DNA of 64,000 nt from Ostreococcus lucimarinus. Its lineage: Eukaryota. Of the stretch, positions 39,460 through 64,000 are shown piece after piece; within the stretch, counting starts at the first letter, position 1; each line of letters starts with the position of its first letter. The position numbers and the translations under genes were made by a program. The notes under the pieces were generated by a model. That model worked only from the letters and a program-made list of their open reading frames with translations, searched no databases and was not told the origin of the DNA. The DNA is taken from assembly GCA_000092065.1 (NCBI GenBank), contig CP000581.1; one strand, given 5' to 3'.

Positions 39460-39461
39460 AG

Positions 39462-40208: not shown

Positions 40209-40276
40209 CTCGACGTCGAAGCGGACGCAAAGTGCGGACGCGGCGCGCGGACGGACGCCACTGGACGGCGCCTTTC

Positions 40277-44974: not shown

Positions 44975-45103
44975 AGACAAAGTAGCGCGAGCGATAATAT
45001 CTCGGCGGTGGCGAAGCATCGAACGACGTGTAAATGAAAATAGCAAACGACGCGACTGCGCATTCCTTCGCCACACATCACCACTTCGCTACGCGCGGCG
45101 ACC

Positions 45104-46936
45104 ATGTACCCACGCGTGGATGCCTCAATAGCCCTGTCGTGCGTCTGCGTGTTCTCATTGTCGGTACTCGCGCTCGCTGTCGAGTGTGTTGGAGACTTTG
45201 TGAACGACGTCGAACGACTCGCACAGTGTGAGTCCGTTGCTGGTGGCAACCTAACTTTCTCCAGTGTCGACGAAGTCATCGGACCTCGATTGCGTTACAT
45301 CACCAATGGATCGATCATCATCACAAACGTGTCTAATTCATCCATTCTATTTCCACGCCTGTTGAGCGTTCACGGTGGCTCCGTGCGTGTTCACGACTAC
45401 GGCGGTCGGTTGAAGCGTCTCGAAGGATTTCATGCGCTTGAATTGATTGAGGGAGATCTTGAGATTTCTGAGGCCCCAAACTTGACTGGCTGGGATGCGT
45501 TCACGTCGCTGTCGCGGGTCACTGGAAGTGTGACGCTGAAAACGCTCGCAATTGCGACGGTGGGGCTTCCATCTCTCATGGATGTGGGCATATTCACAGC
45601 TCGCGGTTTGCCTGCGCTCAACTCGCTCAAAGGACTCGAAAATCTTCGTTCGGTGAGAAAACTAGAACTGGACTCCGAATACGAATCATGGTCGTTCGGT
45701 GAGTGTGGATCGATAAACGTTACCGCCACGCCGCCAGTGCGAAACGTGTGCAACGACTCGCACATGACGTGCGTGGATAATCGATGCGTTGAAACGCTCT
45801 TGTCGACGCTCGCAAACGCGATAGAAGTTCGAACATTTACGTCGCTCGTTCTTCACGATGAACTCTATAGTCGGCGATTTCAGACTATATCGGGACACGC
45901 GATGACGACCGTGTTCGCGCCGAAAGACATAGCCTGGTACCATCGAAACTTGACGACTCCCGCTCGCGCGACCGCAGCAGAGCGCTCCGATATCATCGCG
46001 GCGCACGTGGTAATGAGCTCTTCCAATCATGCGCTTCGACATGGTCAGCGCCTAATCACCGATTTGGGCGTCAAAGAGGTAATGGTGAGTGCGTCTTCTG
46101 ACACTGTTGCACACTCGCTTGTCGCAATCGAAACGGGACGTCGTCGGATCGTGCTCGGCGGATTTCCGGTGAAAGAGACGCGTTGTAGAGTGTACGGTAC
46201 CGCAACGTTTTTTTGGAAAGAGTGTCTACCATCCATGTACACGGAAATAATCGTAAAATCGTCGGATGCCCGACTAGGCGTGGAGAGCAAATTTTCGCGC
46301 GCTGAGCAATCGATAGGACCTATATTTGCCTCACTCGAGAGCCGCGCTGATGGAGACGACGCGTTCTCGGAGGAAGACTTGGATTTCGAAGAAGAGTACG
46401 TGCGCGCGCTACTGTTTGACGAAATCATAGCGCCGTCGTCGTCATCGTCGTCATCGTCGTCCGCATTCGCGTCGAACTCGAACGTGCACGGCGCTATCGT
46501 GGATTCTGCTAGAAGATCATCCAACGGAATCGTACTCATCGTGGATGGAACCTTGTTTCCGAGAAGACTTGACAGAGTGCCTGCGCCGCAGGCAAACGGT
46601 TCGAGCTCGCCGATTCCATCGCGTCCACCGCCGACGCCGACGCCACAATTTTTGTCTCCACCGTCACCACCAGCTCAAAGACCACCGCCACCAATCCTTG
46701 GTTCATTCAATCCAATATATTGGCAAACACGCCCGCCGCCTCCGTCCGCAACTGCTGGAAGTGCGCGCGAGCCGCCGCCGTCACCACCTCCTTCAAAAGG
46801 CTCGTGCCTCGCGGTGCTTCCAAATATTTGCGGGCTGTGTGATTTCACGGACGACGCCGCACCGTGCTGCTGTGACAGTGAGTGCGCGCAAACTGGAGAT
46901 TGTTGTTCGGACTATGCCGTGGTCTGCCTGTCGTAG
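45104..46936 (+). CDS. Secreted glycoprotein-like protein: signal peptide, N-glycosylation-sequon-rich beta-solenoid/receptor-L-like region, Pro-rich linker, C-terminal Cys knot
   Basis: Signal peptide 'MYPRVDASIALSCVCVFSLSVLALA'; many NxS/T sequons ('NGSIIITNVSNSS'); 'PPPTPTPQFLSPPSPPAQRPPPPIL'; C-terminus 'CGLCDFTDDAAPCCCDSECAQTGDCCSDYAVVCLS'. Confidence 0.5.
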   Translation: MYPRVDASIALSCVCVFSLSVLALAVECVGDFVNDVERLAQCESVAGGNLTFSSVDEVIGPRLRYITNGSIIITNVSNSSILFPRLLSVHGGSVRVHDYGGRLKRLEGFHALELIEGDLEISEAPNLTGWDAFTSLSRVTGSVTLKTLAIATVGLPSLMDVGIFTARGLPALNSLKGLENLRSVRKLELDSEYESWSFGECGSINVTATPPVRNVCNDSHMTCVDNRCVETLLSTLANAIEVRTFTSLVLHDELYSRRFQTISGHAMTTVFAPKDIAWYHRNLTTPARATAAERSDIIAAHVVMSSSNHALRHGQRLITDLGVKEVMVSASSDTVAHSLVAIETGRRRIVLGGFPVKETRCRVYGTATFFWKECLPSMYTEIIVKSSDARLGVESKFSRAEQSIGPIFASLESRADGDDAFSEEDLDFEEEYVRALLFDEIIAPSSSSSSSSSAFASNSNVHGAIVDSARRSSNGIVLIVDGTLFPRRLDRVPAPQANGSSSPIPSRPPPTPTPQFLSPPSPPAQRPPPPILGSFNPIYWQTRPPPPSATAGSAREPPPSPPPSKGSCLAVLPNICGLCDFTDDAAPCCCDSECAQTGDCCSDYAVVCLS

Positions 46937-47200: not shown

Positions 47201-49237
47201 CTACTTTTTATACTCGTATTCGATGCGCAAACGCCGCTCCGTTCCCTCACCGACGGCGCTATGACTTAGCATGTACGTGTCCACCAACGCCTGTTGCATT
47301 TCGATGATGCGTCCCGATCGAGGCAATAGCTCGACAGGCTCGCGATGGGGAATGACGAGCTGCTCGACGGCCATGCGCACCTCTTCCAGGGCATCCGTTT
47401 CATCCGCGCTCGACGTAGTCGCTCGCTGTCTATTTTCTTGAGCACCACTTCCTCCGTTAAATCCATCACTTGCACCCGTTATGCCTAACATGGCTTGCAA
47501 AGCGCGAACGAGCTGCGCCGAGTTATCTGCCCGCACGGCGTAAATCGGCATACCTCGCGCTCTAGCCGCGTGTCGTAGCCACGTGGACGTCTTCACTTGC
47601 GATTTTGGCGCAATGACCACGCTCGCGTCTTCAAGAAGGTCAACCAAGCACACTCGATCACCCAAGTCCATGCTCTCCATGACGCGCTCCAGAGCGTCGC
47701 GACTAACTTTGAACGGAAACACTCGAAGAGCGTGCGGAGGGCACGTGTTGTCGTCTTCGTCGTCTTCGACGTCGTTCACGATGACGTCTTCGCCGCCGAG
47801 TTCGAAACGCGTGTTATCCACAAACTGTTGCGTCGTCGACGATGATCGACGTCGCGATGCGCTTGCGATTTCTAAAGCCGCGAGCTCAGAGCTCGATCGA
47901 GGCTGGACTTTTTGCGCCGTCGGTCGAGGCGCCGTCGCGTCGTACGCTAGGATTTCTCCAAGAACGCTCGCCTTTCGGCGACTTGTGTACTCTGCCTCCG
48001 TCGTCACCGTTCCATCTTCGTTCAGAACGCGTAGTTCGGTCATCGGCGACTGCCCCGCGAGTAAAGCGTCGACAGAAGCCGCGACGTCGGTGTGAACTCT
48101 CCAAGTGCCGATGTCGAGCATTTCCACGGCGATGGTAAACGTTGGTGGACCCGCCCTTTCGAGCACACTCTTCTGGACCCCTCGTCTACGTGCTTCGTCG
48201 TCGCCAAGAGTGACGCTCACAACACCACCTATCAAATCACATAACGCCGGGTTCTTCAAAACGTTCTCCAGCGTGTGTCCGTGCGCCGTACCAATCATCT
48301 GCACGCCTCGCTCGCTGATGGTTTGCGCTGCGTCCGCCTCTTGCTGCGTGCCGATTTCATCAACCACCACCGTCTGGGGCGTGTGATTTTCCACGGCTTC
48401 GATGAGCACGAGATGCTGTTCGCTCGCGTTCGGGACTTGCATTCGACGGGCACCACCTATACCGCGATGGGGAACGTCGCCGTCGCCCCCGATTTCATTT
48501 GACGTATCAACGATGACGACACGGCGAGAATGCTCATCCGACAGAATGCGAGAAATCTCTCGAATAGCCGTCGTTTTTCCTACACCAGGCCGTCCGAGAA
48601 GTAGTATCGAATTATTAAACGTCGTCACCGACGTTTCGGCGTCCAAAACGTCCCTGATAAGTTCGGCAGAACCCGAGATCGCGCGTCCGACTCGACACGT
48701 CGCGCCGATGACTTTGCCGTAACGATTCTTAATCGCGCTTATTCTGTGCAAAGTCCCGTTGATACCCGCGCGATTATCTCGTCCGACGTCTCCAACCTTT
48801 GTCATCATTCTATTCAAATCTTCGTACGTCACGAGCTCGTCCCCGATTGTGGCATCGCCGTCCGGAAACCGCGCCTTTGGTAGTCTTCCCAAGTCGAGCA
48901 CGACTTCGGTGAGCTCGAGCCTTCGCGCGTCTTCCGCCAACGCCCGTCGCACGCGCTCGGGCGCCGCGTCGAGCAATAGCGCAATTTCTTTTTCGCTCGT
49001 CACCGCCGCCAGCGTCGCTCGCTTTCGAGCGGCGAGCACGTCCTCCTTCGTCAACGCCAACGCGCCCGCGCTCGAGGACGTCGACGTCGCGTCGTCGGCG
49101 TCGTCGACGGCGTCGCGCCGCGTCGCGCGCCGAGGGCTGGCGCGGCGCCATCGCGCGCTTCGTCGTCCCTTAGTCCACCCGTCGCACCGCGCGGACGCGG
49201 ACGCGGACGTCGACGTCGTCGTCGGCGCCCCCCGCAT
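47201..49237 (-). CDS. ycf45: P-loop ATPase of the SpoIIIAA / Ycf45 (SPD1-like) family, organelle-targeted
   Basis: Walker A 'LLLGRPGVGKTTAIREISRIL', Walker B 'TVVVDEIGTQQEA', 'GVQMIGTAHGHTLENVLKNPALCDLIGGV'. The start is uncertain (ATG 49237 chosen; the track start 49522 would overlap the divergent transporter gene). Confidence 0.6.
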   Translation of the reverse strand: MRGAPTTTSTSASASARCDGWTKGRRSARWRRASPRRATRRDAVDDADDATSTSSSAGALALTKEDVLAARKRATLAAVTSEKEIALLLDAAPERVRRALAEDARRLELTEVVLDLGRLPKARFPDGDATIGDELVTYEDLNRMMTKVGDVGRDNRAGINGTLHRISAIKNRYGKVIGATCRVGRAISGSAELIRDVLDAETSVTTFNNSILLLGRPGVGKTTAIREISRILSDEHSRRVVIVDTSNEIGGDGDVPHRGIGGARRMQVPNASEQHLVLIEAVENHTPQTVVVDEIGTQQEADAAQTISERGVQMIGTAHGHTLENVLKNPALCDLIGGVVSVTLGDDEARRRGVQKSVLERAGPPTFTIAVEMLDIGTWRVHTDVAASVDALLAGQSPMTELRVLNEDGTVTTEAEYTSRRKASVLGEILAYDATAPRPTAQKVQPRSSSELAALEIASASRRRSSSTTQQFVDNTRFELGGEDVIVNDVEDDEDDNTCPPHALRVFPFKVSRDALERVMESMDLGDRVCLVDLLEDASVVIAPKSQVKTSTWLRHAARARGMPIYAVRADNSAQLVRALQAMLGITGASDGFNGGSGAQENRQRATTSSADETDALEEVRMAVEQLVIPHREPVELLPRSGRIIEMQQALVDTYMLSHSAVGEGTERRLRIEYEYKK

Positions 49238-49400
49238 CGCGCGTCGCCGTGTGTCGCGGCGTCCCGCGCGCGCTCGGACCGCCGGACCGCGGGCACGAGG
49301 CACGACTGACTCGCGCGCGTCACAACGCGCGCGCGCGACGAAGGCGACGCACCGACGCCTCGATCGCGTCGTCGGCGTCGTCGTCGAAGTCGCCGTCGCC

Positions 49401-50399
49401 ATGGGCTCGCCCGGCGGACGCAGCGCCGTCGTCATCGCGTGCTGGTACACCGCCAACGTCGGCGTGCTGCTGCTGAACAAGTACATCTTATCCGTGTATG
49501 GGTTCCGATTCCCGGTGTTCATGACGCTGTGTCACATGTGCATGTGTTCGGTGTTATCCGCGGCGGCGAGAGAGTTTAAGATCGTGCCGAAACAGTTCAT
49601 ACGGACGAGGCGACACTACGCCAAGGTGGCGGTGCTGGCGGTGACGTTTGCGCTGTCGGTGCTGGGAGGAAACGTGTCTCTGAGGTACATTCCAGTGAGC
49701 TTCAATCAAGCGTTGGGAGCGACGACACCATTCTTTACGGCTATTTTTGCGTATCTCATGCTGCGTAAGAAGGAAACGACGGCGACGTACATGACGCTCA
49801 TCCCCGTCGTCGGGGGCATAGCCGTGGCGACGTGGGGCGAGCCGAGTTTCAATTTTATTGGGTTCTGCGCGTGCCTCGTCGGGGTGTGCTGTCGAGCGTT
49901 AAAATCGGTGTTACAAGGATGGCTACTGACTCCAGCGGGGGAAAAGGAGGCGGAGAAAATGTCCAACTCGAACGAGAACAAGCTCGACAGTATGTCGCTT
50001 CTGTACTACATGTCGCCGGTGGCCATCGTGACGCTCGGAATTTGCACTTTCATCATGGAACCAGACGCAATATCGGCATTTTATGACGCGGCTGAGATGA
50101 ATCCGCCATTCATTGCCATTCTCTTAGGAAACTGTTTCGTGGCGTATCTCGTCAACCTGACGAATTTTCTCGTCACGGCGCACGTCGGCGCGCTTTCGCT
50201 TCAAGTTCTCGGCAACGCGAAGGGCGTCGTGTGCACTATCGTTAGCATCATGCTCTTCCGTAACCCGGTGACGTTTCGCAGCGTAGCTGGATACACGATT
50301 ACTATGGTCGGTGTTTGGCTTTACTCGTCGAGCAAGCGGCGTAGCGCCCGTTTGCAGGTCATCGAGAACGCCAACAAAAACTTAGCCTCAAAGGTGTAG
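49401..50399 (+). CDS. TPT/NST-family (drug-metabolite-transporter superfamily) sugar-phosphate or nucleotide-sugar transporter
   Basis: About 10 TM helices. 'CWYTANVGVLLLNKYIL', 'SFNQALGATTPFFTAIFAYLMLRKKET', 'ALSLQVLGNAKGVVCTIVSIMLFRNPVT' are hallmark TPT motifs. ATG at 49401. The last 33 codons lie inside the 398-bp inverted repeat. Confidence 0.8.
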   Translation: MGSPGGRSAVVIACWYTANVGVLLLNKYILSVYGFRFPVFMTLCHMCMCSVLSAAAREFKIVPKQFIRTRRHYAKVAVLAVTFALSVLGGNVSLRYIPVSFNQALGATTPFFTAIFAYLMLRKKETTATYMTLIPVVGGIAVATWGEPSFNFIGFCACLVGVCCRALKSVLQGWLLTPAGEKEAEKMSNSNENKLDSMSLLYYMSPVAIVTLGICTFIMEPDAISAFYDAAEMNPPFIAILLGNCFVAYLVNLTNFLVTAHVGALSLQVLGNAKGVVCTIVSIMLFRNPVTFRSVAGYTITMVGVWLYSSSKRRSARLQVIENANKNLASKV

Positions 50400-50696
50400 C
50401 GCGATGATTCTCTTCCTGTTACTCGTTCTTTGCGTGTCGTTTCACTTGTATTTCGGTCTTCTAAAGGCGCGAGTCTAAATACTCGATTCTAAAGGCGCGA
50501 GTAATCTAAGCTTTCGTCGTCTGAAGACGCTTCGAACTCGCGTTCGTACGCGCGTGAGCCGTTTCCGTAAGCGCGCGGCGCTTCGTCGGACTCCTCATCG
50601 CTCGAGCCATGCCGCGACGATCCAGCCGATGTCGCCATCTTCATACGCGCTGTAGCGCTTTCCACTCGCGACCGCTGACTATGCACTCGCGCAACA
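50299..50696. repeat. Inverted-repeat copy A (398 bp), reverse complement of 63293..63690
   Basis: Every segment I compared by eye is identical between the copies, including the reverse complement of 'tagattactcgcgcctttagaatcgagtatttagactcgcgcctttag'. Copy A contains the transporter 3' end on + and the channel's last 69 codons on - (track ORF 50489..50686). Confidence 0.85.
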
Positions 50697-50773
50697 CACG
50701 ACCTCGCGTCGGCGTCGGCGTCGAGCTCGTCGCGCGAATCATCTCGAGGGTGCCATCATCGTCTTCTACACGC

Positions 50774-52528
50774 TTACACGCTTCTACCTTCTAGACGTTC
50801 TAGACGTGCGAGAACGCGCGCGGTGGACGAACGATTGAATGAGCTGTGTCGAAACTCGACTTCGTGTACGGCATGGTCGGTGAGCTCGCCTTCGTCGCCT
50901 GAGAAATCGAAATGCCCAATGACGAGCGATTCGTCGACACCGTCGTGTTTCGAAAAGCGTCCCAACACGATGGGATACCATATCGCGTCGTCCTCAGGCA
51001 TATCTGCATACGGTATTTCTTGTTGTTGAAACCACGTCGGAATGATGTCAGCTGACGCGCGCGCGTGAGTTGGAAACAACTTCGCGACGCTCGTGCCGTC
51101 GCGAAACGCGCACACAAATTCGTGCTCGACGGCGAGACCACCATCTGGCATCCAACCGCGAAATACGAAGCGCGCGGCTTCAAAAAGATCTTTCGGATCG
51201 TTCAAAGCATCGCACGCCAAGGGGTTGAGACCTGCTTCCTCTAGTGCGACGGACCGAGCGACGTCCAGTGGGACTAAATCCTTCTCGCTGTCGACTTCGG
51301 CGATGAAGCCGGTGTAGCGGCCGGCGAATTCGCCGCGCGTGTGCTTCCCCAGCAGGATGCGACCGTTGGCGACGTCCAAAACGAGAAGCTGAGCAAAACG
51401 CTTTGGCGGTCTCGTAAGCTCTGATTTCGGGTACACCTGCTTGTCGATCATATCGGCGAGGTTGTCGCTGGCGCGAGTGACGTTTTGTCCGACGTGATCG
51501 CCTTGTGTCCGCGGTTCGTACGCTGCATTCAACGGACGATGCGGAGTGACAAACTGTGGAAGTGGCGCAATGACGGCGTCGTCGTTGAGACCGTTGAATC
51601 TCACGAGCGATAATCGATCTCGTCCATCGCGAGATGGTCGAACGCGATGCGGCGTCGCGCGTACGACTCCGTTTGTAAAAATCTCGAAAGCGTCCGACAG
51701 AATGCACGTAAAAATGGCCTCATTCTCGTACGCCGGCGCCGAGCGCCACGCACCATCTCGCCCTTGGAGCTCTAATCCTTCGCACGTCTGATGAAGAAGT
51801 GTGAAGAATTCAAAGTCTGTGTGCTCCGAGATACCAACTATTTCCACTTTCGACGCGGCGATTCGTTCGCTGCGTCGCGTAGTCGAGTCCTCCTCGTTCG
51901 CTTCGTCATCCACTTTCATCGATGGATATCGCATTGCGCGCATGCTGCAGTGTGACGTATTGCCAAATTTCTTTACCCAGACGTCTTCGTCGTCGACGTG
52001 AAGCGCCTTCGCAAAGCATCGATACAGCGTCCTCGCCGCGCCATCGCACGCGCTGTAAAAACTGCAAAACGCACTTTGCATCGCGGGCACCTCCACCGGC
52101 CAATCCATAGGTCCAAGTCCTCGTGCCGCGTCGTCACCTCGTTCGTCTCGCACTTGCTCAATCTCACATGAGCTCAACTCTCGAACGACATCAAACGACT
52201 CGACGAGCGCGGCTGTTTTCTTTTGGTAAGAGTACTCTTCCAGCAGGGGCACGAAACCACCGCTCTCGTTCGCGTATTGCGAGTGTACGTACAGCGCCTT
52301 CACGTCTTCTGGCAGCGAGAAGAACGTTCGGGCGATGTCGTACGTGCGCGCGACGTCGAACGGCGCGACGCGCGACGTTGACGCCTCGCCGACGTCTCGA
52401 GCGTCGAGCTCGAAGTAACCGACACGCTCGCTCGACGTCAGCGCTTCACCCAGACGCGCGATTTCGACGTCGTCGCCGTCCGCGAGCTTGATGAGAGATA
52501 CTCGCGGCACGCTGTCGCTCGCGTGCAT
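50774..52528 (-). CDS. Fusion protein: 2-oxoglutarate/Fe(II)-dependent oxygenase (DIOX_N plus 2OG-FeII_Oxy) with a C-terminal Nudix hydrolase domain
   Basis: Oxygenase 'HTDFEFFTLLHQ...ATPHRV' (HxD...H facial triad plus basic 2OG-binding residue) with an N-terminal 'VSLIKLADGDDVEIARLGEALTSSERVGYFEL' DIOX_N-like region. The C-terminal ~150 aa carry a Nudix-box-like 'GRYTGFIAEVDSEKDLVPLDVARSVALEEAGL'. Start at ATG 52528; the track ORF extends to 52918 with a possible TM segment. Confidence 0.6.
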   Translation of the reverse strand: MHASDSVPRVSLIKLADGDDVEIARLGEALTSSERVGYFELDARDVGEASTSRVAPFDVARTYDIARTFFSLPEDVKALYVHSQYANESGGFVPLLEEYSYQKKTAALVESFDVVRELSSCEIEQVRDERGDDAARGLGPMDWPVEVPAMQSAFCSFYSACDGAARTLYRCFAKALHVDDEDVWVKKFGNTSHCSMRAMRYPSMKVDDEANEEDSTTRRSERIAASKVEIVGISEHTDFEFFTLLHQTCEGLELQGRDGAWRSAPAYENEAIFTCILSDAFEIFTNGVVRATPHRVRPSRDGRDRLSLVRFNGLNDDAVIAPLPQFVTPHRPLNAAYEPRTQGDHVGQNVTRASDNLADMIDKQVYPKSELTRPPKRFAQLLVLDVANGRILLGKHTRGEFAGRYTGFIAEVDSEKDLVPLDVARSVALEEAGLNPLACDALNDPKDLFEAARFVFRGWMPDGGLAVEHEFVCAFRDGTSVAKLFPTHARASADIIPTWFQQQEIPYADMPEDDAIWYPIVLGRFSKHDGVDESLVIGHFDFSGDEGELTDHAVHEVEFRHSSFNRSSTARVLARLERLEGRSV

Positions 52529-52916
52529 GACGCGACGAGCGATCGAACGAGGAGAGTCGTCGCTCACGTCGTCGTGTGACGCGCCGATGCACGAAAAACT
52601 CCTCACACGACGACGTGGGCGACGACGAATCGAACGACGACGAATCGCGAGCAAGATGACGAACGCGACGAGCGAGCGAGTTATTGGCGTCGCCCACGAC
52701 GTGCTGCCACAACGAGCGAAGAAGAAACCGCGACGAGACACAGCGATGACGGAGAGGACGGCTTCGACTTCTTCGGCGGCTGAGGCCGACCCGACGCCGC
52801 TGACGACGGACGATGAGGACGTTCGACGGGGATTCGAAAGCACGGACGCGCGCGTCGTGCGATACGCGCCAGAACACGATGACTTTCGAGCGCGCGAGGA
52901 CGAAGACGAAGACGAC

Positions 52917-53396
52917 ATGCGAGCGCGAAGAGGAGTGCAATACGCTTATAAAGACCACACGGCTGACATTCAGATACACGCCTGGGGATGCGATCTCGCT
53001 GAAGCCTACGCCTGGGCCGCGCTGGCGATGTTTGATTACATGACCCCGCTGGAGGACTGCGCTCGAGTGCGGACGACGCGATTCAAGGAAATACGCGCGA
53101 GCGGGCATGATTTAGACACCTTGCTCTTCGCATTTCTCGACGAGCTTTTGTTCACGTTTCACACAGAGATGCTCATATGCACGGCGGTGCAAGTTTGCGA
53201 GTTCAATCGAGACGAATGGAGTATTCGAGCAGTTGTGGGCGGGACGACGTTCGTCGACGGTGAGACGCGTCAAGGCACGGAGATTAAAGCCATCACATAC
53301 AGCGCGATGAAAATCATAGAACGAGGCGAGATTAGCAAAGACGATGAAAGCACCGGAGTACATCGCGCAGAGTTGTTCGTCATCGTTGACATTTAG
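52917..53396 (+). CDS. ZBTB8OS: Archease (tRNA-splicing ligase RtcB activator)
   Basis: 'YAYKDHTADIQIHAWGCDLAEAYAWAALAMFDYM', 'GHDLDTLLFAFLDELLF' and 'IKAITYSAMKI' match the archease family over full length. ATG at 52917 sits inside a CATG shared with the divergent ORF's track start. Confidence 0.85.
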   Translation: MRARRGVQYAYKDHTADIQIHAWGCDLAEAYAWAALAMFDYMTPLEDCARVRTTRFKEIRASGHDLDTLLFAFLDELLFTFHTEMLICTAVQVCEFNRDEWSIRAVVGGTTFVDGETRQGTEIKAITYSAMKIIERGEISKDDESTGVHRAELFVIVDI

Positions 53397-53439
53397 AACG
53401 CACACACGTCGTAGTTTAGCAGCATCTATAATACAATTC

Positions 53440-54834
53440 TCAACCGAGCCACTCTTCGATGGTCGCCTTCGGTTCGCTGAAGACTAAATCATCTTTAGTC
53501 AGCGGTAAAGACTCTTCCACGAGCTGCACAAGCTGTCTTCGCAGAGCCATCGTTAGCGCTGGCTGCCGAATCGAAGCGTTGAGCTCGACAAACTGCCCGA
53601 GCGAACGTTGCTTCAAGTTGCAGCTCCCCAACATCCCGAAATCCGCCACGGATTCGTCCTCGCTCTCCGCGTACAACACCTTGGCGTGCAGCATGTCGTC
53701 TATGAGAAATATTTTCAAGTTGTTCGAGTCACCGCTTCGCCGCGACGCGTTCACGTCGACCAGTCGTTTGAGCGCCTTGCGATTTGCGTCGTGATACACG
53801 TTCGGCGTTCGAGGGACGATGAGCGTGAGTGACGCGTCGCGTCGCCTCAACATTTCGGCGAGCATATCCGCTCCCATGGAATCAATGTAGGCCATCGCGA
53901 CGGAATATTTCGAGTACCTGGTGTCTCGAAGTAACTGCTTCATCGCTTGCTTCACCTCGAAACGCCCGGGAAAGGTCATATATCTAGGGAAAGTCCAGGC
54001 GATTGGAGACCAGCCCGTCGGTAGATTACTCGCAAAAACGATATCTGCGTCGTCGTTCGACGTAATTGTGCGCTCGAAGCTTCCCAATGCATACCGCATG
54101 GCGTCCACAGCCGCTCGACCATCCGCTCTAATGGCGAAATCGCGCCAATTTGTAAATCTATCGCCGACGTTGACGCCGCCGAATATAACCGACGGCAATC
54201 CGGTGCCGTGTTTTCGCTCGACAATCATGAACTTTGCGTGCGTCGCTTGCGAAACCGGTGTGAACGAAAAATGCTCCGCCCCGAGTTCTTCTTGTAGCGC
54301 TTCTAACTCTGCCGTTAACGTCGTCGTCCCTTCGCACCATCGCGTGAACTTGCTCACAACGGAACCGTCCACAGAGCACTTCACGCGCACGCCTCGCTTG
54401 ACCGCTCTCTTCATCGCCGCGACGACTTTGTCGCTCGATTTCCCGCGCTCGAACACGTACACGCTGAACTCTACGCTATCGCCCTTACTCGTCGTTCCAA
54501 GTTCACGACACAACGCCTCGACGACGTCGACATACGACGTGAGTAACCGCAGCGGTCTCGCCTTGACCACGCGGGCGCCTTCGTCGAACGACCCCGACGA
54601 CGAGACGTCGTCGTCGAACGAGCGCGATGCCGATCGCGAGCCTGCAAACGAACGACTTCCGACGCGATGGTTTTCTACCGTCGGCGGCGCGCGGCCGCGC
54701 TGCGACGTCTCCGCCGCGTGCGCTCGCACACGATGCCGCGTTGCCGCGTCGCCCCGTCTTCGCGACGCGCGCGTCGACGCGCGCGACCTCGGACGTGCGC
54801 GAGGCACGATACTCGCGGCGATGCGCGCCGACAT
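53440..54834 (-). CDS. cls: PLD-superfamily (two HKD motifs) bacterial-type cardiolipin synthase / phospholipase D-like protein, organelle-targeted
   Basis: HKD-1 'ATHAKFMIVERKHG...GGVNVGDRF'; HKD-2 'MLHAKVLYAESEDESVADFGMLGSCNLKQRS'. Length and spacing are like ClsA. Arg/Ser-rich presequence; ATG at 54834 (the track start 54918 is TTG). Confidence 0.8.
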   Translation of the reverse strand: MSARIAASIVPRARPRSRASTRASRRRGDAATRHRVRAHAAETSQRGRAPPTVENHRVGSRSFAGSRSASRSFDDDVSSSGSFDEGARVVKARPLRLLTSYVDVVEALCRELGTTSKGDSVEFSVYVFERGKSSDKVVAAMKRAVKRGVRVKCSVDGSVVSKFTRWCEGTTTLTAELEALQEELGAEHFSFTPVSQATHAKFMIVERKHGTGLPSVIFGGVNVGDRFTNWRDFAIRADGRAAVDAMRYALGSFERTITSNDDADIVFASNLPTGWSPIAWTFPRYMTFPGRFEVKQAMKQLLRDTRYSKYSVAMAYIDSMGADMLAEMLRRRDASLTLIVPRTPNVYHDANRKALKRLVDVNASRRSGDSNNLKIFLIDDMLHAKVLYAESEDESVADFGMLGSCNLKQRSLGQFVELNASIRQPALTMALRRQLVQLVEESLPLTKDDLVFSEPKATIEEWLG

Positions 54835-55089
54835 CGACGACGCGCACCGCTCGCGCCTCGCGCCTCGCTCTCGGCGGCACGAACGACGCGACGCGTTTTG
54901 GCGTAACCAACCAACCAAAGATACGCTCGCGCGCGCGGGAATTTCAGCGCTTTATTTTGTTGCAGAGGTGAGGTTGGGCGGTGCGGATATCATATCGTAC
55001 GGCGGTGACGATATCGTGCGATAAGAAATGCGAGATGACATCTACGTCTCATAGAATACAAAGAAAGAATCATGCGCTGCTAAAATCGA

Positions 55090-55722
55090 CTACGCCGCCG
55101 TGCCGTCGGCCAAACTCTGGCGGAGGTTTCGTAAGATCCTCCGCGACGCTCCGGCGAGCTCGCCCGGGATTTCGTTTTCGGCGTCCTCTTTCGCAACGCC
55201 CGCGTTCGCGAGTGCATTCCTTCCCTTTAACTGTAAAACTCCACCCTCCCTATCGTTTTCACCGAGACTTAGGCTCGTGAGATTGTACGCCTCGTCGAAC
55301 GCCTTGGCCTCGGCGGCGCCTCCTTCGTGTTTCGTCAGCGCGGTCCGGAGACCGATCACGGACGCGCGCAAAAGGCGGTTCTCCACCTCGAGCGCGGCGT
55401 TGGATTCGCTCAAATCTATGATCACCTTATCCCGCACCTCCTCCGTCCTCGTCGCACCGCGCGCACCGATTTCACCTTTTATTCCCTGTCCATCGCGGCC
55501 ACCGTTCGCGCGCTGATTCCTTCGCGTCTTGGCGGGCGTGAAGTCGTTCGCGGTGAGCAAGAGAAAGAAAAACACGAAGAACATGATGTACCCACGCTGC
55601 GCGTTCGCCGCACGCGGGTCCGTCATCACCGTCATAGCGACGGAACGCGAGCAGCTCCACTCAATGTCGATCGACTGGCACTCTTCGCCCCTTCTCACTC
55701 GCCCACGCGGGCGACGACGCAT
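55090..55722 (-). CDS. Hypothetical small protein with N-terminal signal-anchor ('IMFFVFFFLLLTANDF')
   Basis: ATG at 55722. One hydrophobic segment, then a soluble Ala/Glu-rich region. No family recognised. Confidence 0.35.
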   Translation of the reverse strand: MRRRPRGRVRRGEECQSIDIEWSCSRSVAMTVMTDPRAANAQRGYIMFFVFFFLLLTANDFTPAKTRRNQRANGGRDGQGIKGEIGARGATRTEEVRDKVIIDLSESNAALEVENRLLRASVIGLRTALTKHEGGAAEAKAFDEAYNLTSLSLGENDREGGVLQLKGRNALANAGVAKEDAENEIPGELAGASRRILRNLRQSLADGTAA

Positions 55723-55802
55723 TCGCGCTTTCTGACTCAGTAAGCCACACGCTGCATGTTGTCGTTGCGTGCGTTTAATAATACTACAGGACTAAGGTAT
55801 AT

Positions 55803-57866
55803 CTATGGCGCCGCGTCTCGTTTCGTCGCTCTCGCCTGTATGTTTTTCGTCAACTCGGCTTGAATCTCGATCAATTCGGCGTTCATGCGCGCAATGTGCT
55901 GTCTTCGCAGTTCTTCCGTTTCAAACGACCCCTTCATAGCCTTGCGGACGCTTTCAGGAGTGTTGTCTCGCACCAAAGGTACGATTGAATCTCCAATGGC
56001 GTCCTCTAAAGCTTCGTACGTCGGCTTCCAAGGCGCCGGCACGGCGTCGTCGAGGCGACTCTTGAACCGTCGGAGCTTGGGCATGAGCGGCGGCGCCGCC
56101 TCCTCGATATTCATCTTGATGGTCTCGAGTCGCTTTTTGAGTTGTTTCATTCGCTCCACTTCGTCAAGCGTCGCTTCAACGCGCATAATTTCCTGCTGAA
56201 TCTTAGAGAGTCGGCTCGCTTTGTCCTCCTCGGTAGTCAAGAGCGCGACGTCGTCGGGCTTGCGTCGCACGAGAAGGCGCACGATGCGCTCTCGAACGCT
56301 CTTTCTCCCAGACTTGAGGTCGTTCTGCCTCGCCACATACCTGCGAACCGCACGTCGACGTTTCTGAGTACCTCCGCGCGCGCTCTGTAGCGCTCTCGTC
56401 AGTTCTTCCTCCTCCTGGCGCTTCTTCGCTAACGTTTGGATGTCCATCGGTCCGTCTGTGAGAATGGTGAATCGCCCCTTTGGAATCTCCTTGAAGTTCT
56501 TGTTTACCACGCGCTTTTCACGGTCCAACGCAGCGTACGCAGCGGCATCCAAAGTGCCTGAGTTGGAGATGGACGCACTCGCTCGCGCTGACGCCCATTT
56601 CCGCTTCTCGTACGATACAACTCGCGTCGTCGGACCGGGCAAGCCGCTCTGTCGGCGGAGCGTGTTGCGCACTTGGCGACTCAGATTCCCCACGGCCGGT
56701 CCGCCGCAAAAGTAAACCCATGGAATCCACGTGGGGATTCCAAGGATATCTGGATGAGAGTACGAATACAGATGACCGTAGTTGATCAACACGATTTCCG
56801 CCACGGGCCCGCACACCGCGGTTAAACTAGCCATGAACAGTCCCTGCGCGCTGTTGTCGAAGAAATACCACGTCGTCACCGCCCATACGCACAAAAATAT
56901 ATCAATCAAATGGTACGGCAGGAAACCATCCACGAAGGGCGATTGCGGCGACGCCAAAATTCCAGAGACGAGGTATTGAAACGCAAAGACGCTGATGCAC
57001 AGATTGACGCTCACCCAGCTCGGCTGCCAACCCAAAGCGGGCTTGCCTTTTGCATTTTCAATCAACTCTGACGTCCTACTCACGATTTGTTCGGTGCCTT
57101 GGAGACCTTTTCGTATCTCAATCTCTCTCGCGCGCTTCACCGACGAGCGAATGCGAAATTCATCGAGACTTGTGTGCCCGAGACCGATGACGATTGCCGC
57201 GGCGCCAAACAGCGGTGGCACCCACCACCCAGTCTCTAAAACACCATTTTCGTTCACAAACATGATTCGAAACAGGTCCTTCACCGGTTCGGGGGCTATG
57301 AAATTCATGATTGGACCGAACGGCGAGTTCCACAACGGTGCGAATAGGGCATCAAAATGAATTTGCAACGGCGTCGCGTAGTGCAACACGTCGAATCGCG
57401 AGTGTTGGTGGTCGAGTAAAGGCCCCAATATTGCCCCCGCCACGAACATCAACGCCACTTCGTTCGCGAACGCGACGCGCTCGCGCTCGACTTCTTCTTC
57501 CACGATCTCTGGCGTCATCGCCGGAGCGCGTCCCGTGACACCGGCCAACGCATTTCTCTTTCCGTCGTCGCCGTCGCCGCCGTTCGTCGACGTCGCCGTC
57601 CCGCTCGCCGGAGCACCTCCCGTCTTCACGACGCGCGACACCACGCGCGCGGCGTCTTGTCGACGCGATAACGCTTCCATCTCTTCCTCTCGCTTCGCGC
57701 GTTCTCTCGCGCGTCGCTCGCTCTTCGCATTCGTCGTCGACGACGCCGGCGTCGGCTCGGATGTCGCGCGCGCGACGACGCGCGCGCGGGCGTCGTCGCG
57801 CGCGCGACGTCGCGCGCGCGCGTCGGCCGGCGCCGAGACCGCGCGCGCGACGACGCCCGCGCGCAT
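55803..57866 (-). CDS. Hypothetical polytopic membrane protein with C-terminal coiled-coil, transit-peptide-like N-terminus
   Basis: Several hydrophobic helices ('LMFVAGAILGPLL', 'WVPPLFGAAAIVIGLGH', 'VSVNLCISVFAFQYLVSGIL', 'LIDIFLCVWAVTTWYFF'), then ~250 aa of charged heptad-like sequence. The track start 58010 is GTG; the first ATG is 57866. Confidence 0.45.
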   Translation of the reverse strand: MRAGVVARAVSAPADARARRRARDDARARVVARATSEPTPASSTTNAKSERRARERAKREEEMEALSRRQDAARVVSRVVKTGGAPASGTATSTNGGDGDDGKRNALAGVTGRAPAMTPEIVEEEVERERVAFANEVALMFVAGAILGPLLDHQHSRFDVLHYATPLQIHFDALFAPLWNSPFGPIMNFIAPEPVKDLFRIMFVNENGVLETGWWVPPLFGAAAIVIGLGHTSLDEFRIRSSVKRAREIEIRKGLQGTEQIVSRTSELIENAKGKPALGWQPSWVSVNLCISVFAFQYLVSGILASPQSPFVDGFLPYHLIDIFLCVWAVTTWYFFDNSAQGLFMASLTAVCGPVAEIVLINYGHLYSYSHPDILGIPTWIPWVYFCGGPAVGNLSRQVRNTLRRQSGLPGPTTRVVSYEKRKWASARASASISNSGTLDAAAYAALDREKRVVNKNFKEIPKGRFTILTDGPMDIQTLAKKRQEEEELTRALQSARGGTQKRRRAVRRYVARQNDLKSGRKSVRERIVRLLVRRKPDDVALLTTEEDKASRLSKIQQEIMRVEATLDEVERMKQLKKRLETIKMNIEEAAPPLMPKLRRFKSRLDDAVPAPWKPTYEALEDAIGDSIVPLVRDNTPESVRKAMKGSFETEELRRQHIARMNAELIEIQAELTKNIQARATKRDAAP

Positions 57867-58082
57867 ATTCGCTCGAACCCTCGCTCGCGGCGCGTCGCGT
57901 CGCGCACTCGCGTCGCGCGGCGCGCGCGCACCGACCAACGGCTGCGGACGCCCGCTCGGGGCGCGGAACGTTCGTCTCCGAAAGGGCGCATTGACGATGG
58001 CGAACGCCACGTCACGTCGCGCGCAACTTCACTCGCGCAGGTCAGGTGACACCGTCCGCGGCGCGTCCGCGGCGCGCGATCG

Positions 58083-58086
58083 ATGG

Positions 58087-58124
<38 letters not shown>

Positions 58125-61100
58125 TCGCCGCACGCGTTCTCCCCGCACGCCGCGGGCGGGGGGCTTTCGGAGGGCGATGGCGACGGCGCGAGGAAAAGTG
58201 GCGCGGCGTCGCGCGGGACCGCGCGAAAAGCGTACGAAGGCGCGAAACAGAGCGTGAAGAAGGCGTACGCGCGCGTGTACGACGACGAGCGGAGCTTGTT
58301 GTGCTTTAGCGACGCGTCCAGGGTGCGACAAATGTGCGCGAAAATCGCGCGAGCCACGAGCTTTCAGGTGTTCGTTTTCGCCGTAGTGGCGCTTAACGCC
58401 GCTGTGTTGGCGATGGAACTTCCCGAGCGCGCCTACGTCGCTCGAGGAGGCTCCGTACCGCTGACCGCGGACGGGTCGTGGGCGTTGCAAGTGGTTTTTG
58501 TCGTCGTCTTCGCGTTCGAAGCACTGGTGAAAGTTATAGCGAGTGGCTTCGCCATCGGATCGAAGGCGTACTTGACGGAGCGAAGCAATATTTTCGATTT
58601 CGTCGTGGTTGTGGTTGGGATCGTAGACTTGAGTAGCTCAGGCTCGAGCGGAGTCGGGACGCTGCGACTGTTGCGCACGATTCAGCCCCTTCGAGCGCTG
58701 AACAAATTCAAATCTGGAAGAATGGTTCTAGAGACGATTCGGAAATCGATTCCGCTCTTGCTCGACGTCGTGGTATTCATGTCGTGGTTCGTGATCGTTT
58801 GCACCGTAGTCGGTATGATGTCGTTCGGTGGTCGCTTGAACTCGCGAGAGTATTCGGGCGCCGGGTCGTCAAACGTCGCGGCGACGGCGATTTGTAGCAC
58901 CCTCGTCGCCGACTACCCGACGTCGGCCGCGGCGAGCGCGGAAAGCCCAAATTATCCTTCAGATGAGCTGCTATGCCTGAATCGTAGAAAGAATACGCTC
59001 GTCTCGAACGATACGTATTGCTGCGATTCCGGCGTGTCACCCGTCGACGGCTTCGTCAACTTTGACGATTTTGCCAAGGGTGCGTTTGTCGTTTTACAAA
59101 TTATGACGGTCGATGGATGGAATGAGATCGCATGGCCTACCGCGCGGGCCGCTGGGACGGCGCCTGCGTTGATATTTTACTTCGTTGTCGTTCTCATCGG
59201 AGGTTTCTTTGTGCTTCAACTGTTCACGTCGGTCATTTGCGCGACGTTGAGTGACATCGAAGATGAAAGCGCCTCGATGGATTGCGAGACGCTCGGTGAT
59301 GGCGCGACGGGCCTTTCACAAATGTTCGAATCAACGCGACCCTCGGTTTACTCGAAGTCATTCTTGAGCGGCGTTGGATCAACACTCTCGTCGTTCAGGT
59401 TGCCAGGTCAGGATGAAATTGATGGTTCCGAGGGCATGCAGAAGTGGCGACTCAAGGCACTCGCTCTCGTCGCTGACGTTCGATTCGAGTCTTTCGTGAA
59501 CATCACCATTATACTGAACACATTTACGATGATGTCAGTGACTGCAGAACCGAATCCGTCGCTGGAGCTATTTAGAGAAAACGCCGAGTACTTCTTTTTC
59601 GCGGTGTTTTGCTCCGAGTTTGCGCTGAAACATTTTGCTGTCGGACCCGTAGCGTACTGGAAGACGACGTGGAATCGACTGGATGGCTTGGTCGTTCTCT
59701 CCGGTATAATTGATATGACACTATCAGCTATAAGCTCTGGATCTGGCGTGAACCTGTCCTTCCTTCGCATACTGCGCGTGTTGAGAGTTTTGCGCATTGC
59801 GCGCGTCTTTCGTAGGAGTACGAGCTTTCAGAAAATATTGCGTGCGGTCGTACTAGGAGCGCAGCGTATTTGGGTGTTTTTATTGGTATGGGCAATCTTC
59901 ATGATTATGTTTGCGATCCTCGGTACGCAGCTCTTTTCTGCGAAAGGTGATTTGGACGATGAGAGATTGAATTTCAGAGACTTTTTTTCGTCCATCGTGA
60001 CGCTCTTTGTGGTGAGCACGGGCGAGAACACGTTTGAAGTCGCTTGGGGCACTATGAAAGCTGACGGTGACGCGGCGGGACTTTACATGGTCGTTTGGTG
60101 CTTGATCACGACATCGATTTTGGCGCTCGTACTTGGAATTCTTATCGATTGTGTCACCGAAGAAGGTAAAGTTGCATCGATTATCACCATGAAAGTTCCG
60201 CGACGAGAGCGCTTTGCGCGGGAAATGGCTAAATCCATGGGGTTTGACGAAGACGACTTCCCTGAATGGGTTCATCTCAAAGCAAACGAGGCGTGGACAA
60301 AGCGCAATCAAGAGCGCTCGAGGGCGAAGAGCGCAACGGAAGCAGGTTTAGGTCTCGATGAAGACGAAGAGAAGACAGACAGCGACAGCGACAGCGACGA
60401 CGACGAAGTCGAAGGTGATGAAGTAGCGCTACATGTGTTTGGCGATCCGTTCGAGGCGAGGCGCTTGCGCAAAGAACGAATCGCTCAAATGCGACGCGTC
60501 CACGAAGTTGCGGTCGTGCGACATTGGCTCGTGACGCTAGGTTATGAGCATCACTCTGCGAAATCGCTCGAAGTCGCGAAGACGATGCGGCGGCGATCCG
60601 TGATAAAGGCTCGCGAGCGACTGGCCAAGTCGCACAAGGCGAACGAGTTGAAGCGTCGAGCAATTGTTGACAGCATCAGCGCCAAACTTTTGGATCGTGA
60701 TGACGTCGATGCGAGTCGCTTAGTTCCACTCAGCGTCCGCTGCATCATGAAAAAGGACGAGGACTTACACGCAGACCTCAACTTGATCGACATCAACGGC
60801 GACTTTATTCCGCATCATGCCCTCTTTCCCGACAACGACCCCGTAGCTGAGGCGGAATCGTTGGTGCATTACGTGCGAAATGATAACTTTCGTATAGCGA
60901 TGTCATTTTACGGCATTGATGAATCCGACGAAAGAGACCAACTAAGACTCAAGGCGCTTCGCTTCGTGAAGCATCCTTGGTTTGACGTTGTCGTATTGCT
61001 CTTGATTGGTGCGAGTTCAGTATTGCTCGCCACGGAAACGAACTCGTTTCCAGCGGCTGACTCGAATATGGAACGGGTATACTTGATTCTCGATATTTGT

Positions 61101-63500
61101 TTCAACACATGCTTCACCATCGAAATGTGTTTGAAACTGTTTGGGCTTGGGGCGTGGAGGTTTCACGGGTCGTACTTCAAGTCGAAGTTCAACATCATGG
61201 ATGCCGTTGTGGTCGTCACTTCGTGGTTGATTGTCTTGCTTGGCGACGCTCTGCCAATACGATCGTTACGCGTTGTGAGGGTTCTACGTCCTTTACGATC
61301 GGTTAAACGAATTAAGGGGTTGCGAGTCGTAGTCGAAGCCATCATGTCTTCACTGCCGGCGATTTCATCCGTGTGCGTGGTCGGCCTCGCGATGCTCACG
61401 ATGTTGTCAGTGCTGGGTATGGAGTTGTTTCTGGGCAAGATGCATCGTTGCACGAACACCGCGGTGACTGTTGCGAATAAAACGCAGTGCTTAGCGGCGG
61501 GGGGAGTTTGGCGAAAGGCAAAGTTTAACTTTGATTCCTTTCCGGAGGCTTTCCTCAGCGTGTTCATCATCGCTACCGGCGACAATTGGCAAGACCTCAT
61601 GTACGAAGCGATGGATGTCGTCGGCGTAGATCAAGAACCTATCCGAGATAACGCCAAGTGGGCGTGCGTTTACTTTTTCGTATCGATTCTCTTTGGCTTC
61701 TTGCTCTGGGCAAATCTCTTTGTGTCGGCGCTCATCGACAATTTCAATCGTATCGCACACGACGAGAACGACGGCAAGCTGCTTGTCACCGATGAGCAAC
61801 GCGTGTGGCAGCAAGCAATGTTACTCGCCACGGTGCACGCTGACAACTCTTGGCGTAGATCATCACCGGAAACGCCCTGGAAAGCCGTCGTGCATGGCGT
61901 AGTGTCTAAGTATACCTTTGACGCGTTTTCCGTCTTTATGATCGTACTCAACATGGTCACGATGATGGCAATACGCGCGAACCCGTCGAAATCTGAGGAC
62001 GACTATCAAGTTTGGATGGGAAACACGTTAGCGATCTGGTACATGCTTGAGGCTTATCTTTTGATCGTCGCCATGAAGTGGAAAAATTACTGGCAGAGCG
62101 GTTGGAATAAGATCGATTTCATCGTGGCAGTTAGCGGTGTCGTCGGTCTACTCATCCCGGATGTTTACGAGAGTGGCGTTGGTGGAGCTTTCCGTATGCT
62201 GAGATTTTTGCGATTGTTTAAAATTGTTCAGGTGAGCAAAGGTCTGCGAACACTTTTCGCGACATTCTTGTCGGCGATTCCTGGAGTCGTCAATGTCGCG
62301 CTTTTATCTCTGCTGTTCATGTACATCTATGCTTGCCTCGGTGTCGCACTCTTTGGCGACATGTCTTCAGATTACCTCGGCGCTGCACTTTCGGAGTACT
62401 CAAACTTTGTGACGTTCCCAAAAGCGATGGTGAGTCTTTTTGTGAGTTACACTGGAAATTGGCAAGGATACTTCACCGACATTTACGTCGACGATCGCTG
62501 TTACGAAAACACATCGCTACCGGCTAATGTGACGTGCTCTCCCCGCTACGTGAGCATATTTTATTTCGTCACGTACGTCATCACGAGCGTCTTTTTCCTT
62601 GGGAACTTGTTCATCGCCATTATCCTTGAGCGATTTAGCTTTTGTGCCTCAGAAGAAGAAGGTGTGGGTGGCAGTGGCGAGAGCAACTTTCTTTACGCCA
62701 CGATGACGTTGAAGCGTGTGGCGCGTCAAATTTCTCGTAGCGTACGCGAGGCGACCAAGCTCGCGCCGAGCGAACGGCAAGATGCATATGTTGAGAAGCG
62801 TCGGGCGCGTTCGAAGGCAGGCAGCGGCACTGCGACGCCGAGCACGCCGCATTTGAGCAAGAACAATAGCATTCAGCGCGCGAGCACGGCGAGCACTACG
62901 CCGGCGTCTGCATCGCCGCATGGCGATTTCGATCCGTTCGATGATCCAACCGATGAAGTCATCGATACTGTGCGATCCAACCTTGAAGAAATTCGCGCTA
63001 AAACGCAGTCTCCGATCGCAGTCGAAGACGATCTCGACTTTGAAGACGTCAAGTCTGCGCTGAGAGACGCGTTGCCAACCCAAGACGCGGCGTCTCTTTT
63101 GGCGGCGGCGAACGCCGTTGATCGACTCGTGCGTTCGCGCAGTCGCTCTCGAAGCGTTAGTCGGGGACGCACAAGGGTATCATCTGCAGGTGATATGGCT
63201 TTTGAAGATGTGAACCGAAGCGACGACGATGATGGCACCCTCGAGATGATTCGCGCGACGAGCTCGACGCCGACGCCGACGCGAGGTCGTAGTGTTGCGC
63301 GAGTGCATAGTCAGCGGTCGCGAGTGGAAAGCGCTACAGCGCGTATGAAGATGGCGACATCGGCTGGATCGTCGCGGCATGGCTCGAGCGATGAGGAGTC
63401 CGACGAAGCGCCGCGCGCTTACGGAAACGGCTCACGCGCGTACGAACGCGAGTTCGAAGCGTCTTCAGACGACGAAAGCTTAGATTACTCGCGCCTTTAG
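58083..63500 (+). CDS. Four-domain voltage-gated cation channel (Cav/Nav/NALCN superfamily), 1805 aa, single exon
   Basis: Four S1-S6 repeats. S4 voltage sensors: 'LRLLRTIQPLRALNKFK' (I), 'LRILRVLRVLRIARVFRRS' (II), 'IRSLRVVRVLRPLRSVKRIKGLR' (III), 'FRMLRFLRLFKIVQVSKGLR' (IV). Pore loops: 'QIMTVDGWNE', 'VSTGENTFE', 'IATGDNWQD', 'SYTGNWQG'. ATG verified at 58083. The last 69 codons lie inside repeat copy B. Confidence 0.9.
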
Positions 63501-63690
63501 AATCGAGTATTTAGACTCGCGCCTTTAGAAGACCGAAATACAAGTGAAACGACACGCAAAGAACGAGTAACAGGAAGAGAATCATCGCGCTACACCTTTG
63601 AGGCTAAGTTTTTGTTGGCGTTCTCGATGACCTGCAAACGGGCGCTACGCCGCTTGCTCGACGAGTAAAGCCAAACACCGACCATAGTAA
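63293..63690. repeat. Inverted-repeat copy B (398 bp), reverse complement of 50299..50696, abutting the subtelomere
   Basis: Contains the channel's last 69 codons on + and, on -, the exact 3' end of the TPT transporter gene (the 'TITMVGVWLYSSSKRRSARLQVIENANKNLASKV*' coding sequence). Confidence 0.85.
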
Positions 63691-63828
63691 GGGTTCCGGG
63701 AAGGATGCGAATGCTAGTGACTTTTTTAGGGTTTAGTACGACGCAGAGAGACTAGGGTTAGGTGTAATAAGTATTAGCTAGTCGGTCGGTTACGGCACTT
63801 CTCCCGAAGCGCCTCCCTCCCTCATGCG

Positions 63829-64000
63829 TAGGGTTTAGGGTTTAGGGTTTAGGGTTTAGGGTTTAGGGTTTAGGGTTTAGGGTTTAGGGTTTAGGGTTTA
63901 GGGTTTAGGGTTTAGGGTTTAGGGTTTAGGGTTTAGGGTTTAGGGTTTAGGGTTTAGGGTTTAGGGTTTAGGGTTTAGGGTTTAGGGTTTAGGGTTTAGG
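63829..64000 (+). repeat. Telomere, (TTTAGGG)n, about 24 units, running to the window edge
   Basis: Perfect 'gggttta' heptamer array. The G-rich strand runs 5'->3' toward the window end, the orientation of a right chromosome terminus. Plant/green-algal repeat type. Degenerate telomere-like units lie at 63735..63775. Confidence 0.95.

Follow-up and report, generated by a model that had tools for sequence, protein, structure and literature searches.

A near-perfect inverted repeat of two gene 3′ ends beside the right telomere of Ostreococcus lucimarinus chromosome 1

Inverted repeat and genes of the chromosome end

The right end of chromosome 1 of Ostreococcus lucimarinus CCE9901 is contained in the 64-kb stretch of DNA analysed here, which is referred to as the window. 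Near this end lies an inverted repeat with two arms, A and B, each of which carries the 3′ ends of two genes, one encoding a sugar-phosphate/phosphate translocator of the TPT family (hereafter TPT) and the other a four-domain voltage-gated-type cation channel (hereafter the channel). The two arms are separated by a spacer of several genes, and arm B stands next to the subtelomere. The positions of all features are given in Table 1.

The preliminary description of this DNA had reported a perfect inverted pair of 398 bp, and the segments 50299–50696 and 63293–63690 are indeed exact reverse complements (398/398). The existence of the repeat was thereby confirmed but its length was not, since the arms reach further inward: repeat finding and self-BLAST gave 465 bp for arm A (50299–50763) and 466 bp for arm B (63690–63225 in the inverted sense). 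The sole difference between them is a 1-bp indel, a deletion in arm A; near position 50697, arm A reads CAACAC-ACGACC and arm B reads CAACACTACGACC. The BLAST alignment extends 3 bases beyond the arms with one mismatch, to 50766/63222. With their inverted orientation and near-perfect identity (465/466 bp), the arms thus flank a segment that is invertible by non-allelic homologous recombination (NAHR). An internal copy of the arm is absent from the 12,461-bp spacer, which is therefore single-copy as in a fold-back duplication, and no further repeat of comparable size was found within the window.

Within the repeat unit, position 50433/50434 marks the boundary of TPT-native and channel-native sequence. 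The two gene tails with their stop codons and the common 3′ flank are all present in each arm, so that either orientation of the spacer leaves TPT, the channel and the gene for the 2OG-Fe(II) oxygenase (hereafter 2OG), which follows arm A, intact. Only 10 nt separate the 2OG stop codon from arm A at its inner edge, and the 3′ untranslated region of 2OG must therefore lie inside the repeat.

At the outer end of arm B the sequence continues with GGGTT..., and the word AGGGTT spans the junction. The adjoining subtelomeric stretch (63691–63828) contains nine G-strand telomere-type 6-mers against 0.04 expected, together with the only interstitial TTTAGGGTTTAG of the window, at position 63725. Neither the rest of the window nor any of the fetched loci contains a match to this stretch. 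Proximal sequence is thus present as an inverted copy beside the telomere, separated by 138 bp from the (TTTAGGG)n array, which is the arrangement of a fold-back duplication with terminal deletion.

Table 1. Features of the right end of chromosome 1 (positions in the window).
Feature	Position	Strand	Remarks
Arm A	50299–50763		TPT tail, intergenic stretch and silent channel-tail copy, 465 bp
Arm A, TPT tail	50299–50399	+	Last 33 codons (first partial) and stop
Arm A, intergenic stretch	50400–50488		89 bp
Arm A, silent copy of the last 91 channel codons and stop	50489–50763	−	1-bp deletion near 50697
Arm B	63225–63690		Channel tail and stop, intergenic stretch and orphan TPT tail, 466 bp
Arm B, channel tail and stop	63225–63500	+	Last 91 codons
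Arm B, orphan TPT-tail copy	63590–63690	−	
Spacer	50764–63224		Single-copy, 12,461 bp
Subtelomeric stretch	63691–63828	+	Unique, 138 bp, starts GGGTTCC; adjoins arm B
Telomere array, (TTTAGGG)n	63829–64000	+	Perfect, to the window end
TPT-family sugar-phosphate/phosphate translocator	49401–50399	+	332 aa; Pfam TPT, 1.2e-46
2OG-Fe(II) oxygenase	50774–52918	−	Pfam 2OG-FeII_Oxy; Nudix-like C-terminal part
Archease	52917–53396	+	Pfam
PLD-like gene	53440–54834	−	Pfam
210-aa open reading frame	55090–55722	−	
INSIG-like gene	55803–58010	−	Pfam
Four-domain voltage-gated-type cation channel	58083–63500	+	1805 aa; Pfam Ion_trans, 1.6e-177

The TPT protein is identical to XP_001415705.1/ABO93997.1 of strain CCE9901, and the PF03151 match spans its residues 9–309 (profile positions 4–291 of 291), with the C-terminal helix included. 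PF00520 was matched in four stretches of one channel polypeptide, as befits a four-domain channel; an exact look-up of the 1805-aa protein returned no record. The spacer comprises 2OG, the archease gene, the PLD-like gene, the unassigned 210-aa open reading frame (ORF), the INSIG-like gene and most of the channel gene. An Rfam scan of 49000–64000 detected no RNA family.

One other perfect inverted repeat exists in the window (2483–2576 and 2953–3046, 94 bp, 100% identity). One of its arms comprises the last 30 codons and the stop of a minus-strand histone H4 gene (2486–2797), while the other is an orphan inverted copy of the H4 3′ end, 376 bp away and upstream of the H4 start. It is the same in character as the repeat described above, namely a perfect inverted copy of a gene 3′ end.

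Origin of the gene tails within the arms

As the preliminary description had stated, TPT places its last 33 codons in arm A, the first of them being partial. The channel contributes 91 codons and the stop to arm B instead of the 69 codons first counted, because the arm is longer than first reported. Seven relatives of the Ostreococcus clade conserve the TPT residues that the arm encodes (TMVGVWLYSSSKRRSARL...), which are still recognisable in three more distant ones. The conservation in these 10 relatives agrees with the earlier claim that this C-terminus is ancestral to TPT.

A homologue search with the last 599 aa of the channel returned only four distant matches, as the low-complexity tail dominated the word filter. 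Channel orthologues were found through the neighbourhoods of TPT orthologues, on four contigs from other Ostreococcus lineages (L015, L028, L029 and L031). In all four of them, the tail is homologous to the part of the channel encoded inside the arm. The common motifs are NRSD[DE][DE], TRGR, HSQR.R, ARM, SSR[HY].SS, an acidic Ser-rich stretch and a terminal S[RQ]L, and they flank the position of the indel on both sides in the reading frame of arm B. At the very end of the gene (63489–63500 in the window), the channels of all five Ostreococcus lineages compared terminate in S-R-L or S-Q-L after the acidic Ser-rich stretch. The gene order is TPT→ ←INSIG channel→ ORF→ PLD→ in L015, and ←channel TPT→ ←Arf in L028, L029 and L031. 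In none of these four loci does the 3′ end of the channel adjoin the 3′ end of TPT.

These orthologues bear directly on the model put forward in the preliminary description, in which arm B is an inverted capture of the TPT 3′ flank that supplies the channel with its tail and stop codon. This model is in keeping with a TPT tail that is native to TPT and with the position of arm B against the subtelomere. However, the in-arm tail aligns with four orthologous channel tails up to the C-terminal S[RQ]L, motifs on either side of the indel are conserved in the frame of arm B, the 3′ ends of the orthologous channels are not beside a TPT 3′ end, and the gene order of the orthologues excludes that the same flank was captured there. 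We therefore regard this model as scarcely credible, and its claim that the channel tail and stop are captured, reverse-read TPT flank is refuted by the tails of four differently placed orthologues. The preliminary description had also proposed that orthologous channels with this tail but without a TPT flank as neighbour would make arm A the derived copy. Such channels were found, yet arm A is still not simply derived. Overall, the earlier interpretation is partly supported.

Both coding ends of the repeat unit are thus shown to be native. With native coding sequence in both halves, the unit is a duplicated convergent junction and neither a TPT flank nor a channel flank. Because both tails are native, only a TPT→ ←channel junction can have been the source. 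This junction must have had 89 bp between the two stop codons, and the orientation of the spacer must then have been opposite to that in the window. The order TPT→ ←channel differs from that of L015 by one inversion, that of the divergent INSIG–channel pair, while the order of the window needs two.

Environmental contigs and spacer orientation

The exact TPT protein or a one-residue variant of it occurs in hundreds of metagenome contigs, with a DNA identity of 99.4–99.9% to the window; a 556-kb contig with the TPT variant P0126 was sought but did not figure among the loci returned. Nineteen contigs cross the arm from TPT into the channel (L001, L003, L005–L012, L022–L027 and L034–L036). The join of the window, from TPT through the arm into 2OG, was found in contig L004 only, besides a hairpin contig, Ga0206682_10000344 of the Joint Genome Institute (JGI; L001 and L021, 50,858 bp), which reads TPT-arm-channel...2OG-arm-TPT′. 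Hence, 19 of the 20 arm-crossing environmental contigs have the orientation opposite to that of the window, and all are colinear with it up to the arm edges. Contigs of both orientations therefore exist. The preliminary description had pointed out that recombination between the copies would invert the intervening DNA, which is supported by the opposite orientation in the majority of environmental assemblies. The 19:1 tally is suggestive but no proof. The hairpin contig indicates that assemblers walk through the arm arbitrarily, without real linkage, and short-read assemblers cannot separate the orientations because no k-mer below 466 nt distinguishes the two isomers. We infer that wild genomes probably differ in spacer orientation.

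Several other contigs end at or just inside the arm. A scan for the 2OG/arm junction returned only the hairpin contig. L037 stops at the inner edge of the arm, while L011 and L013, SPAdes-type assemblies with k = 55, stop 55 nt inside it, coming from the 2OG side. Likewise, the Logan contigs L040 and L041 (k = 31) stop 30 nt (k−1) inside arm A, and both are 100.000% identical to the window over 7.0–7.4 kb. A fork at the arm boundary in independent data on an identical genome argues against a collapsed or invented copy.

The extra T of arm B is present in all 22 full-length environmental copies of the unit, including the copy beside 2OG in L004, and 21 of the 22 are identical to arm B over 466/466 positions. 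Since none of the 22 has the 1-bp deletion, it is unique to the reference copy of arm A. Flipping the spacer of the reference back would leave the channel 1754 aa long, with an aberrant tail ending in ...TRGRVLRECIVSGREWKALQRV.

Further structural variants were observed among the same contigs. A 93.8-kb MEGAHIT contig, L002, follows the window through TPT to position 50433, 34 bp past the stop and inside arm A. The join is contained in its positions 10899–11360, and is followed by 243 bp of unrelated sequence containing TTTTTTAGGGG. Beyond this linker, L002 enters a convergent PPR gene and an FSH1-NIF-NIF block, both absent from the window. L002 is either a translocation or end-fusion haplotype of some wild lineage or a chimeric contig. 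The adjacency of TPT and channel in three outgroup clades indicates that the TPT/PPR join is derived. The same PPR gene stands at the contig end in L038 and L039. In L038 (5754–5983), 83 bp past the PPR stop are common with L002 and are followed by 86 unique bp starting with GGTTCC and then by (TTTAGGG)n. The word AGGGTTCC is found both at this junction and at the arm B/subtelomere junction of the window (63689–63696). Such agreement could be a trace of how ends are healed or could have arisen by chance (probability about 1 in 4096 for the 6-mer). Between the subtelomere of the window, that of L038 and the 243-bp linker of L002, no similarity was detected beyond telomere-like words.

In L022, an intergenic point between the PLD-like gene and the 210-aa ORF, position 54978 of the window, is joined at contig position 19542 to window position 50796, which lies within 2OG, 7 codons from its 3′ end. 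As a result, the block of 2OG, archease and PLD is inverted relative to the common environmental order. L027 and L034 break 75–153 nt past this join point, at 19695 and 19617, and the pattern of the three contigs suggests a polymorphic junction.

Contig L026 (ERZ10646527 contig_13474) differs from the window in another way: its positions 14–6000 correspond to 39365–45400 with 5–8% divergence and many indels over about 6 kb, and beyond this block the identity is ~99.5% through TPT, the arm and the spacer. The contig was considered as long-read evidence and rejected, the differences being concentrated in one 6-kb block and not spread as read noise. The block is either a divergent haplotype or the product of a mixed assembly. 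Finally, the divergent intergenic region of the INSIG-like gene and the channel contains a GC-rich, self-complementary, low-complexity block (CGCGCG/GACGAC, 57733–57866), at which the environmental contigs L009, L010, L035 and L036 end.

Origin of the repeat and its meaning

We favour, with moderate confidence, a fold-back-type inverted duplication at a broken end followed by an inversion of the 12,461-bp spacer between the arms. Ancestrally in O. lucimarinus, the TPT and channel genes would have been convergent, their stop codons 89 bp apart. A break or loss of the telomere may then have occurred just distal to 2OG, whereupon the 3′ end, through fold-back or a template switch, would have primed at the channel tail, 12.5 kb further in on the same strand, and been extended towards TPT. 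After 466 nt the product would have been cut or released and capped by the telomere-like subtelomere and a telomere, placing the copy in inverted orientation 10 nt past the stop of the then terminal 2OG gene. Homologous recombination between the near-identical arms could subsequently have flipped the spacer. The sequenced strain would represent this flipped state, in which TPT ends in arm A and the channel in arm B, by the telomere, and the channel half of arm A, being unused, could have acquired the 1-bp deletion. The full-length C-terminus of 2OG, as judged against its L015 orthologue, ends 10 nt before the arm and fits a break just distal to this gene. A footprint of break repair, which the preliminary description had listed among its alternatives, is thus favoured by the layout of the arm beside an intact 2OG and a telomere. 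We infer the fold-back origin and the order of events from this layout, and a fold-back or template-switch mechanism is plausible. Incidentally, the hairpin drawn by assemblers resembles the uncut intermediate of such a process.

Several points weigh against this history. The microhomology at the inner junction amounts to at most 2 nt and is too short to be informative: the 2OG flank and the channel sequence that precedes the arm have GA in common, followed by a mismatch. No outgroup contig was colinear beyond 2OG (in L015, 2OG and archease lie elsewhere), and a loss of terminal sequence thus cannot be demonstrated. No homology was detected between the 210-aa ORF and the 220-aa ORF of L015, which slightly weakens the argument from synteny. 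The orientation tally may reflect assembler heuristics and not biology, and a sequencing error could account for the 1-bp deletion in arm A. In addition, the arm B/subtelomere junction was not found in JGI metagenome contigs, nor the subtelomere in viral contigs, and the placement of arm B beside the telomere is thus taken from the window only.

The missing junction is also what an assembly artefact would predict, that is, a mis-join or a duplicated collapse in the reference that created the second copy or the join to the subtelomere; assemblies are prone to errors in terminal repeats. However, short-read assemblers discard dead-end tips of the kind formed by a short subtelomere with its telomere, which explains why the junction is absent from the contigs. 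Moreover, the arms differ by 1 bp and hence were not made by copying one consensus. Independent assemblies attach both the channel and the 2OG flank to the same 466 bp and break k or k−1 nt inside, two of the breaking contigs being 100% identical to the reference. The CCE9901 genome was presumably finished from Sanger reads longer than the arm, which also counts against an artefact. Given the 1-bp difference and the independent forks at the arm boundaries, the mis-join that the preliminary description had allowed for is very improbable. The window orientation could instead be ancestral and the repeat of two-step origin. The chromosome end would then have broken ~55 bp past the channel stop and captured 135 bp of TPT tail and flank (50299–50433) in inverted orientation, after which gene conversion from arm B to arm A would have put the channel tail (331 bp) in between 2OG and the TPT flank; contigs of the flipped type would stem from a later inversion or an assembler artefact. 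The finished reference does show this orientation, and L002 shares the TPT flank only to 50433 before it diverges, so that a real seam lies inside the arm. Yet this seam is read equally well as the old junction of the convergent TPT/channel pair, which the adjacency of the two genes in three outgroup clades also fits. A conversion tract with 331 bp of heterology that ends 10 nt from the 2OG stop is, furthermore, less parsimonious than one copy of 466 bp. We therefore hold the two-step origin to be rather improbable.

Another possibility is that the arms are old and owe their identity to ongoing gene conversion. The unit is 466/466 identical in 21 of the 22 environmental copies while the flanks differ by 0.1–0.5%, as expected under such upkeep. 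However, assemblers collapse repeats to a consensus, and low diversity is expected anyway; the reference retains an unconverted 1-bp difference; and the repeat and the TPT→ ←channel junction are both lacking in the sister lineages examined, which indicates that the duplication is younger than the species split. Old arms kept alike in this manner have a small chance of being the correct account, and gene-conversion upkeep is in any case compatible with a fold-back duplication and spacer inversion rather than a true alternative to them.

Inverted duplications with a terminal deletion, a single-copy spacer and a healed telomere are known from human constitutional rearrangements, yeast and maize. 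Like the products of fold-back or breakage-fusion-bridge events, the structure described here has an inverted proximal copy at the new end, a single-copy spacer (12.46 kb) and telomere-like sequence that starts right at the outer junction. In contrast to them, its arm measures only 466 bp, its microhomology is at most 2 nt and its spacer would since have been inverted in the sequenced strain. Inversions between inverted repeats are equally well known, for example at human Xq28 FLNA/EMD, at F8 int22h with its telomeric copies, in the flip-flop of plastid inverted repeats and in the yeast 2-micron plasmid. As in the inversion polymorphisms produced by NAHR, near-identical inverted arms flank a segment that is seen both ways, here in contigs and not in reads, and the breakpoints lie inside the arms. 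The present arms differ in that they are very short, lie at a nuclear chromosome end and are made up of two convergent gene 3′ ends, so that inversion swaps the pairing of arms and genes while leaving the genes intact. No recombinase is implied. The structure thus combines two well-known things, a healed-end inverted duplication and a low-copy-repeat inversion substrate, and its particular feature is an arm made of a two-gene 3′ module.

Within the genus, lines of O. mediterraneus show large terminal deletions, translocations and telomere-to-telomere reassembly, with 4-nt microhomology at one fusion site (PMC13390643). That work shows broken ends to be readily healed and rearranged, and end healing and translocation to be common in the genus, but the changes are on the 100-kb scale, affect the small outlier chromosome and are linked to virus resistance; an inverted copy of a gene junction as short as the present one, on a standard chromosome, is not among the rearrangements described (PMC13390643). 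Our literature search found nothing specific on this repeat or on Ostreococcus subtelomeric inversions.

It is tempting to regard the arms as a permanent flip-flop switch, located at the end of a nuclear chromosome, that produces heritable expression differences, with AGGGTTCC as a pointer to specific end healing. If so, recurrent inversion would change which gene adjoins the telomere (the channel or 2OG) and which arm supplies each 3′ end. Lineages would then differ by telomere position effect or, in the sequenced strain, by a channel tail read through the frameshifted arm, and a free-living picoeukaryote would possess a device resembling phase variation. Two independently healed ends that start with AGGGTTCC would, moreover, hint at a specific end-healing mechanism. 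We consider this reading a long shot; what is present is a real but ordinary kind of chromosome-end rearrangement.

The results also correct an attractive reading of the locus, since the C-terminus of the channel was not newly gained from junk DNA but is conserved across Ostreococcus. For metagenome studies of this abundant alga, they imply that contigs of the locus in public assemblies can be palindromic or hairpin artefacts. On the fold-back history, the locus would be a compact example of how a broken end is repaired in a very gene-dense genome: a ready-made 3′ end and terminator module is copied, and the repair creates an inversion substrate that costs no gene. Combined with the other variants, namely TPT joined to the end of another chromosome, a telomere-capped PPR gene and an inverted 2OG-PLD block, the repeat suggests that the ends of standard chromosomes are structurally polymorphic in wild O. 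lucimarinus.

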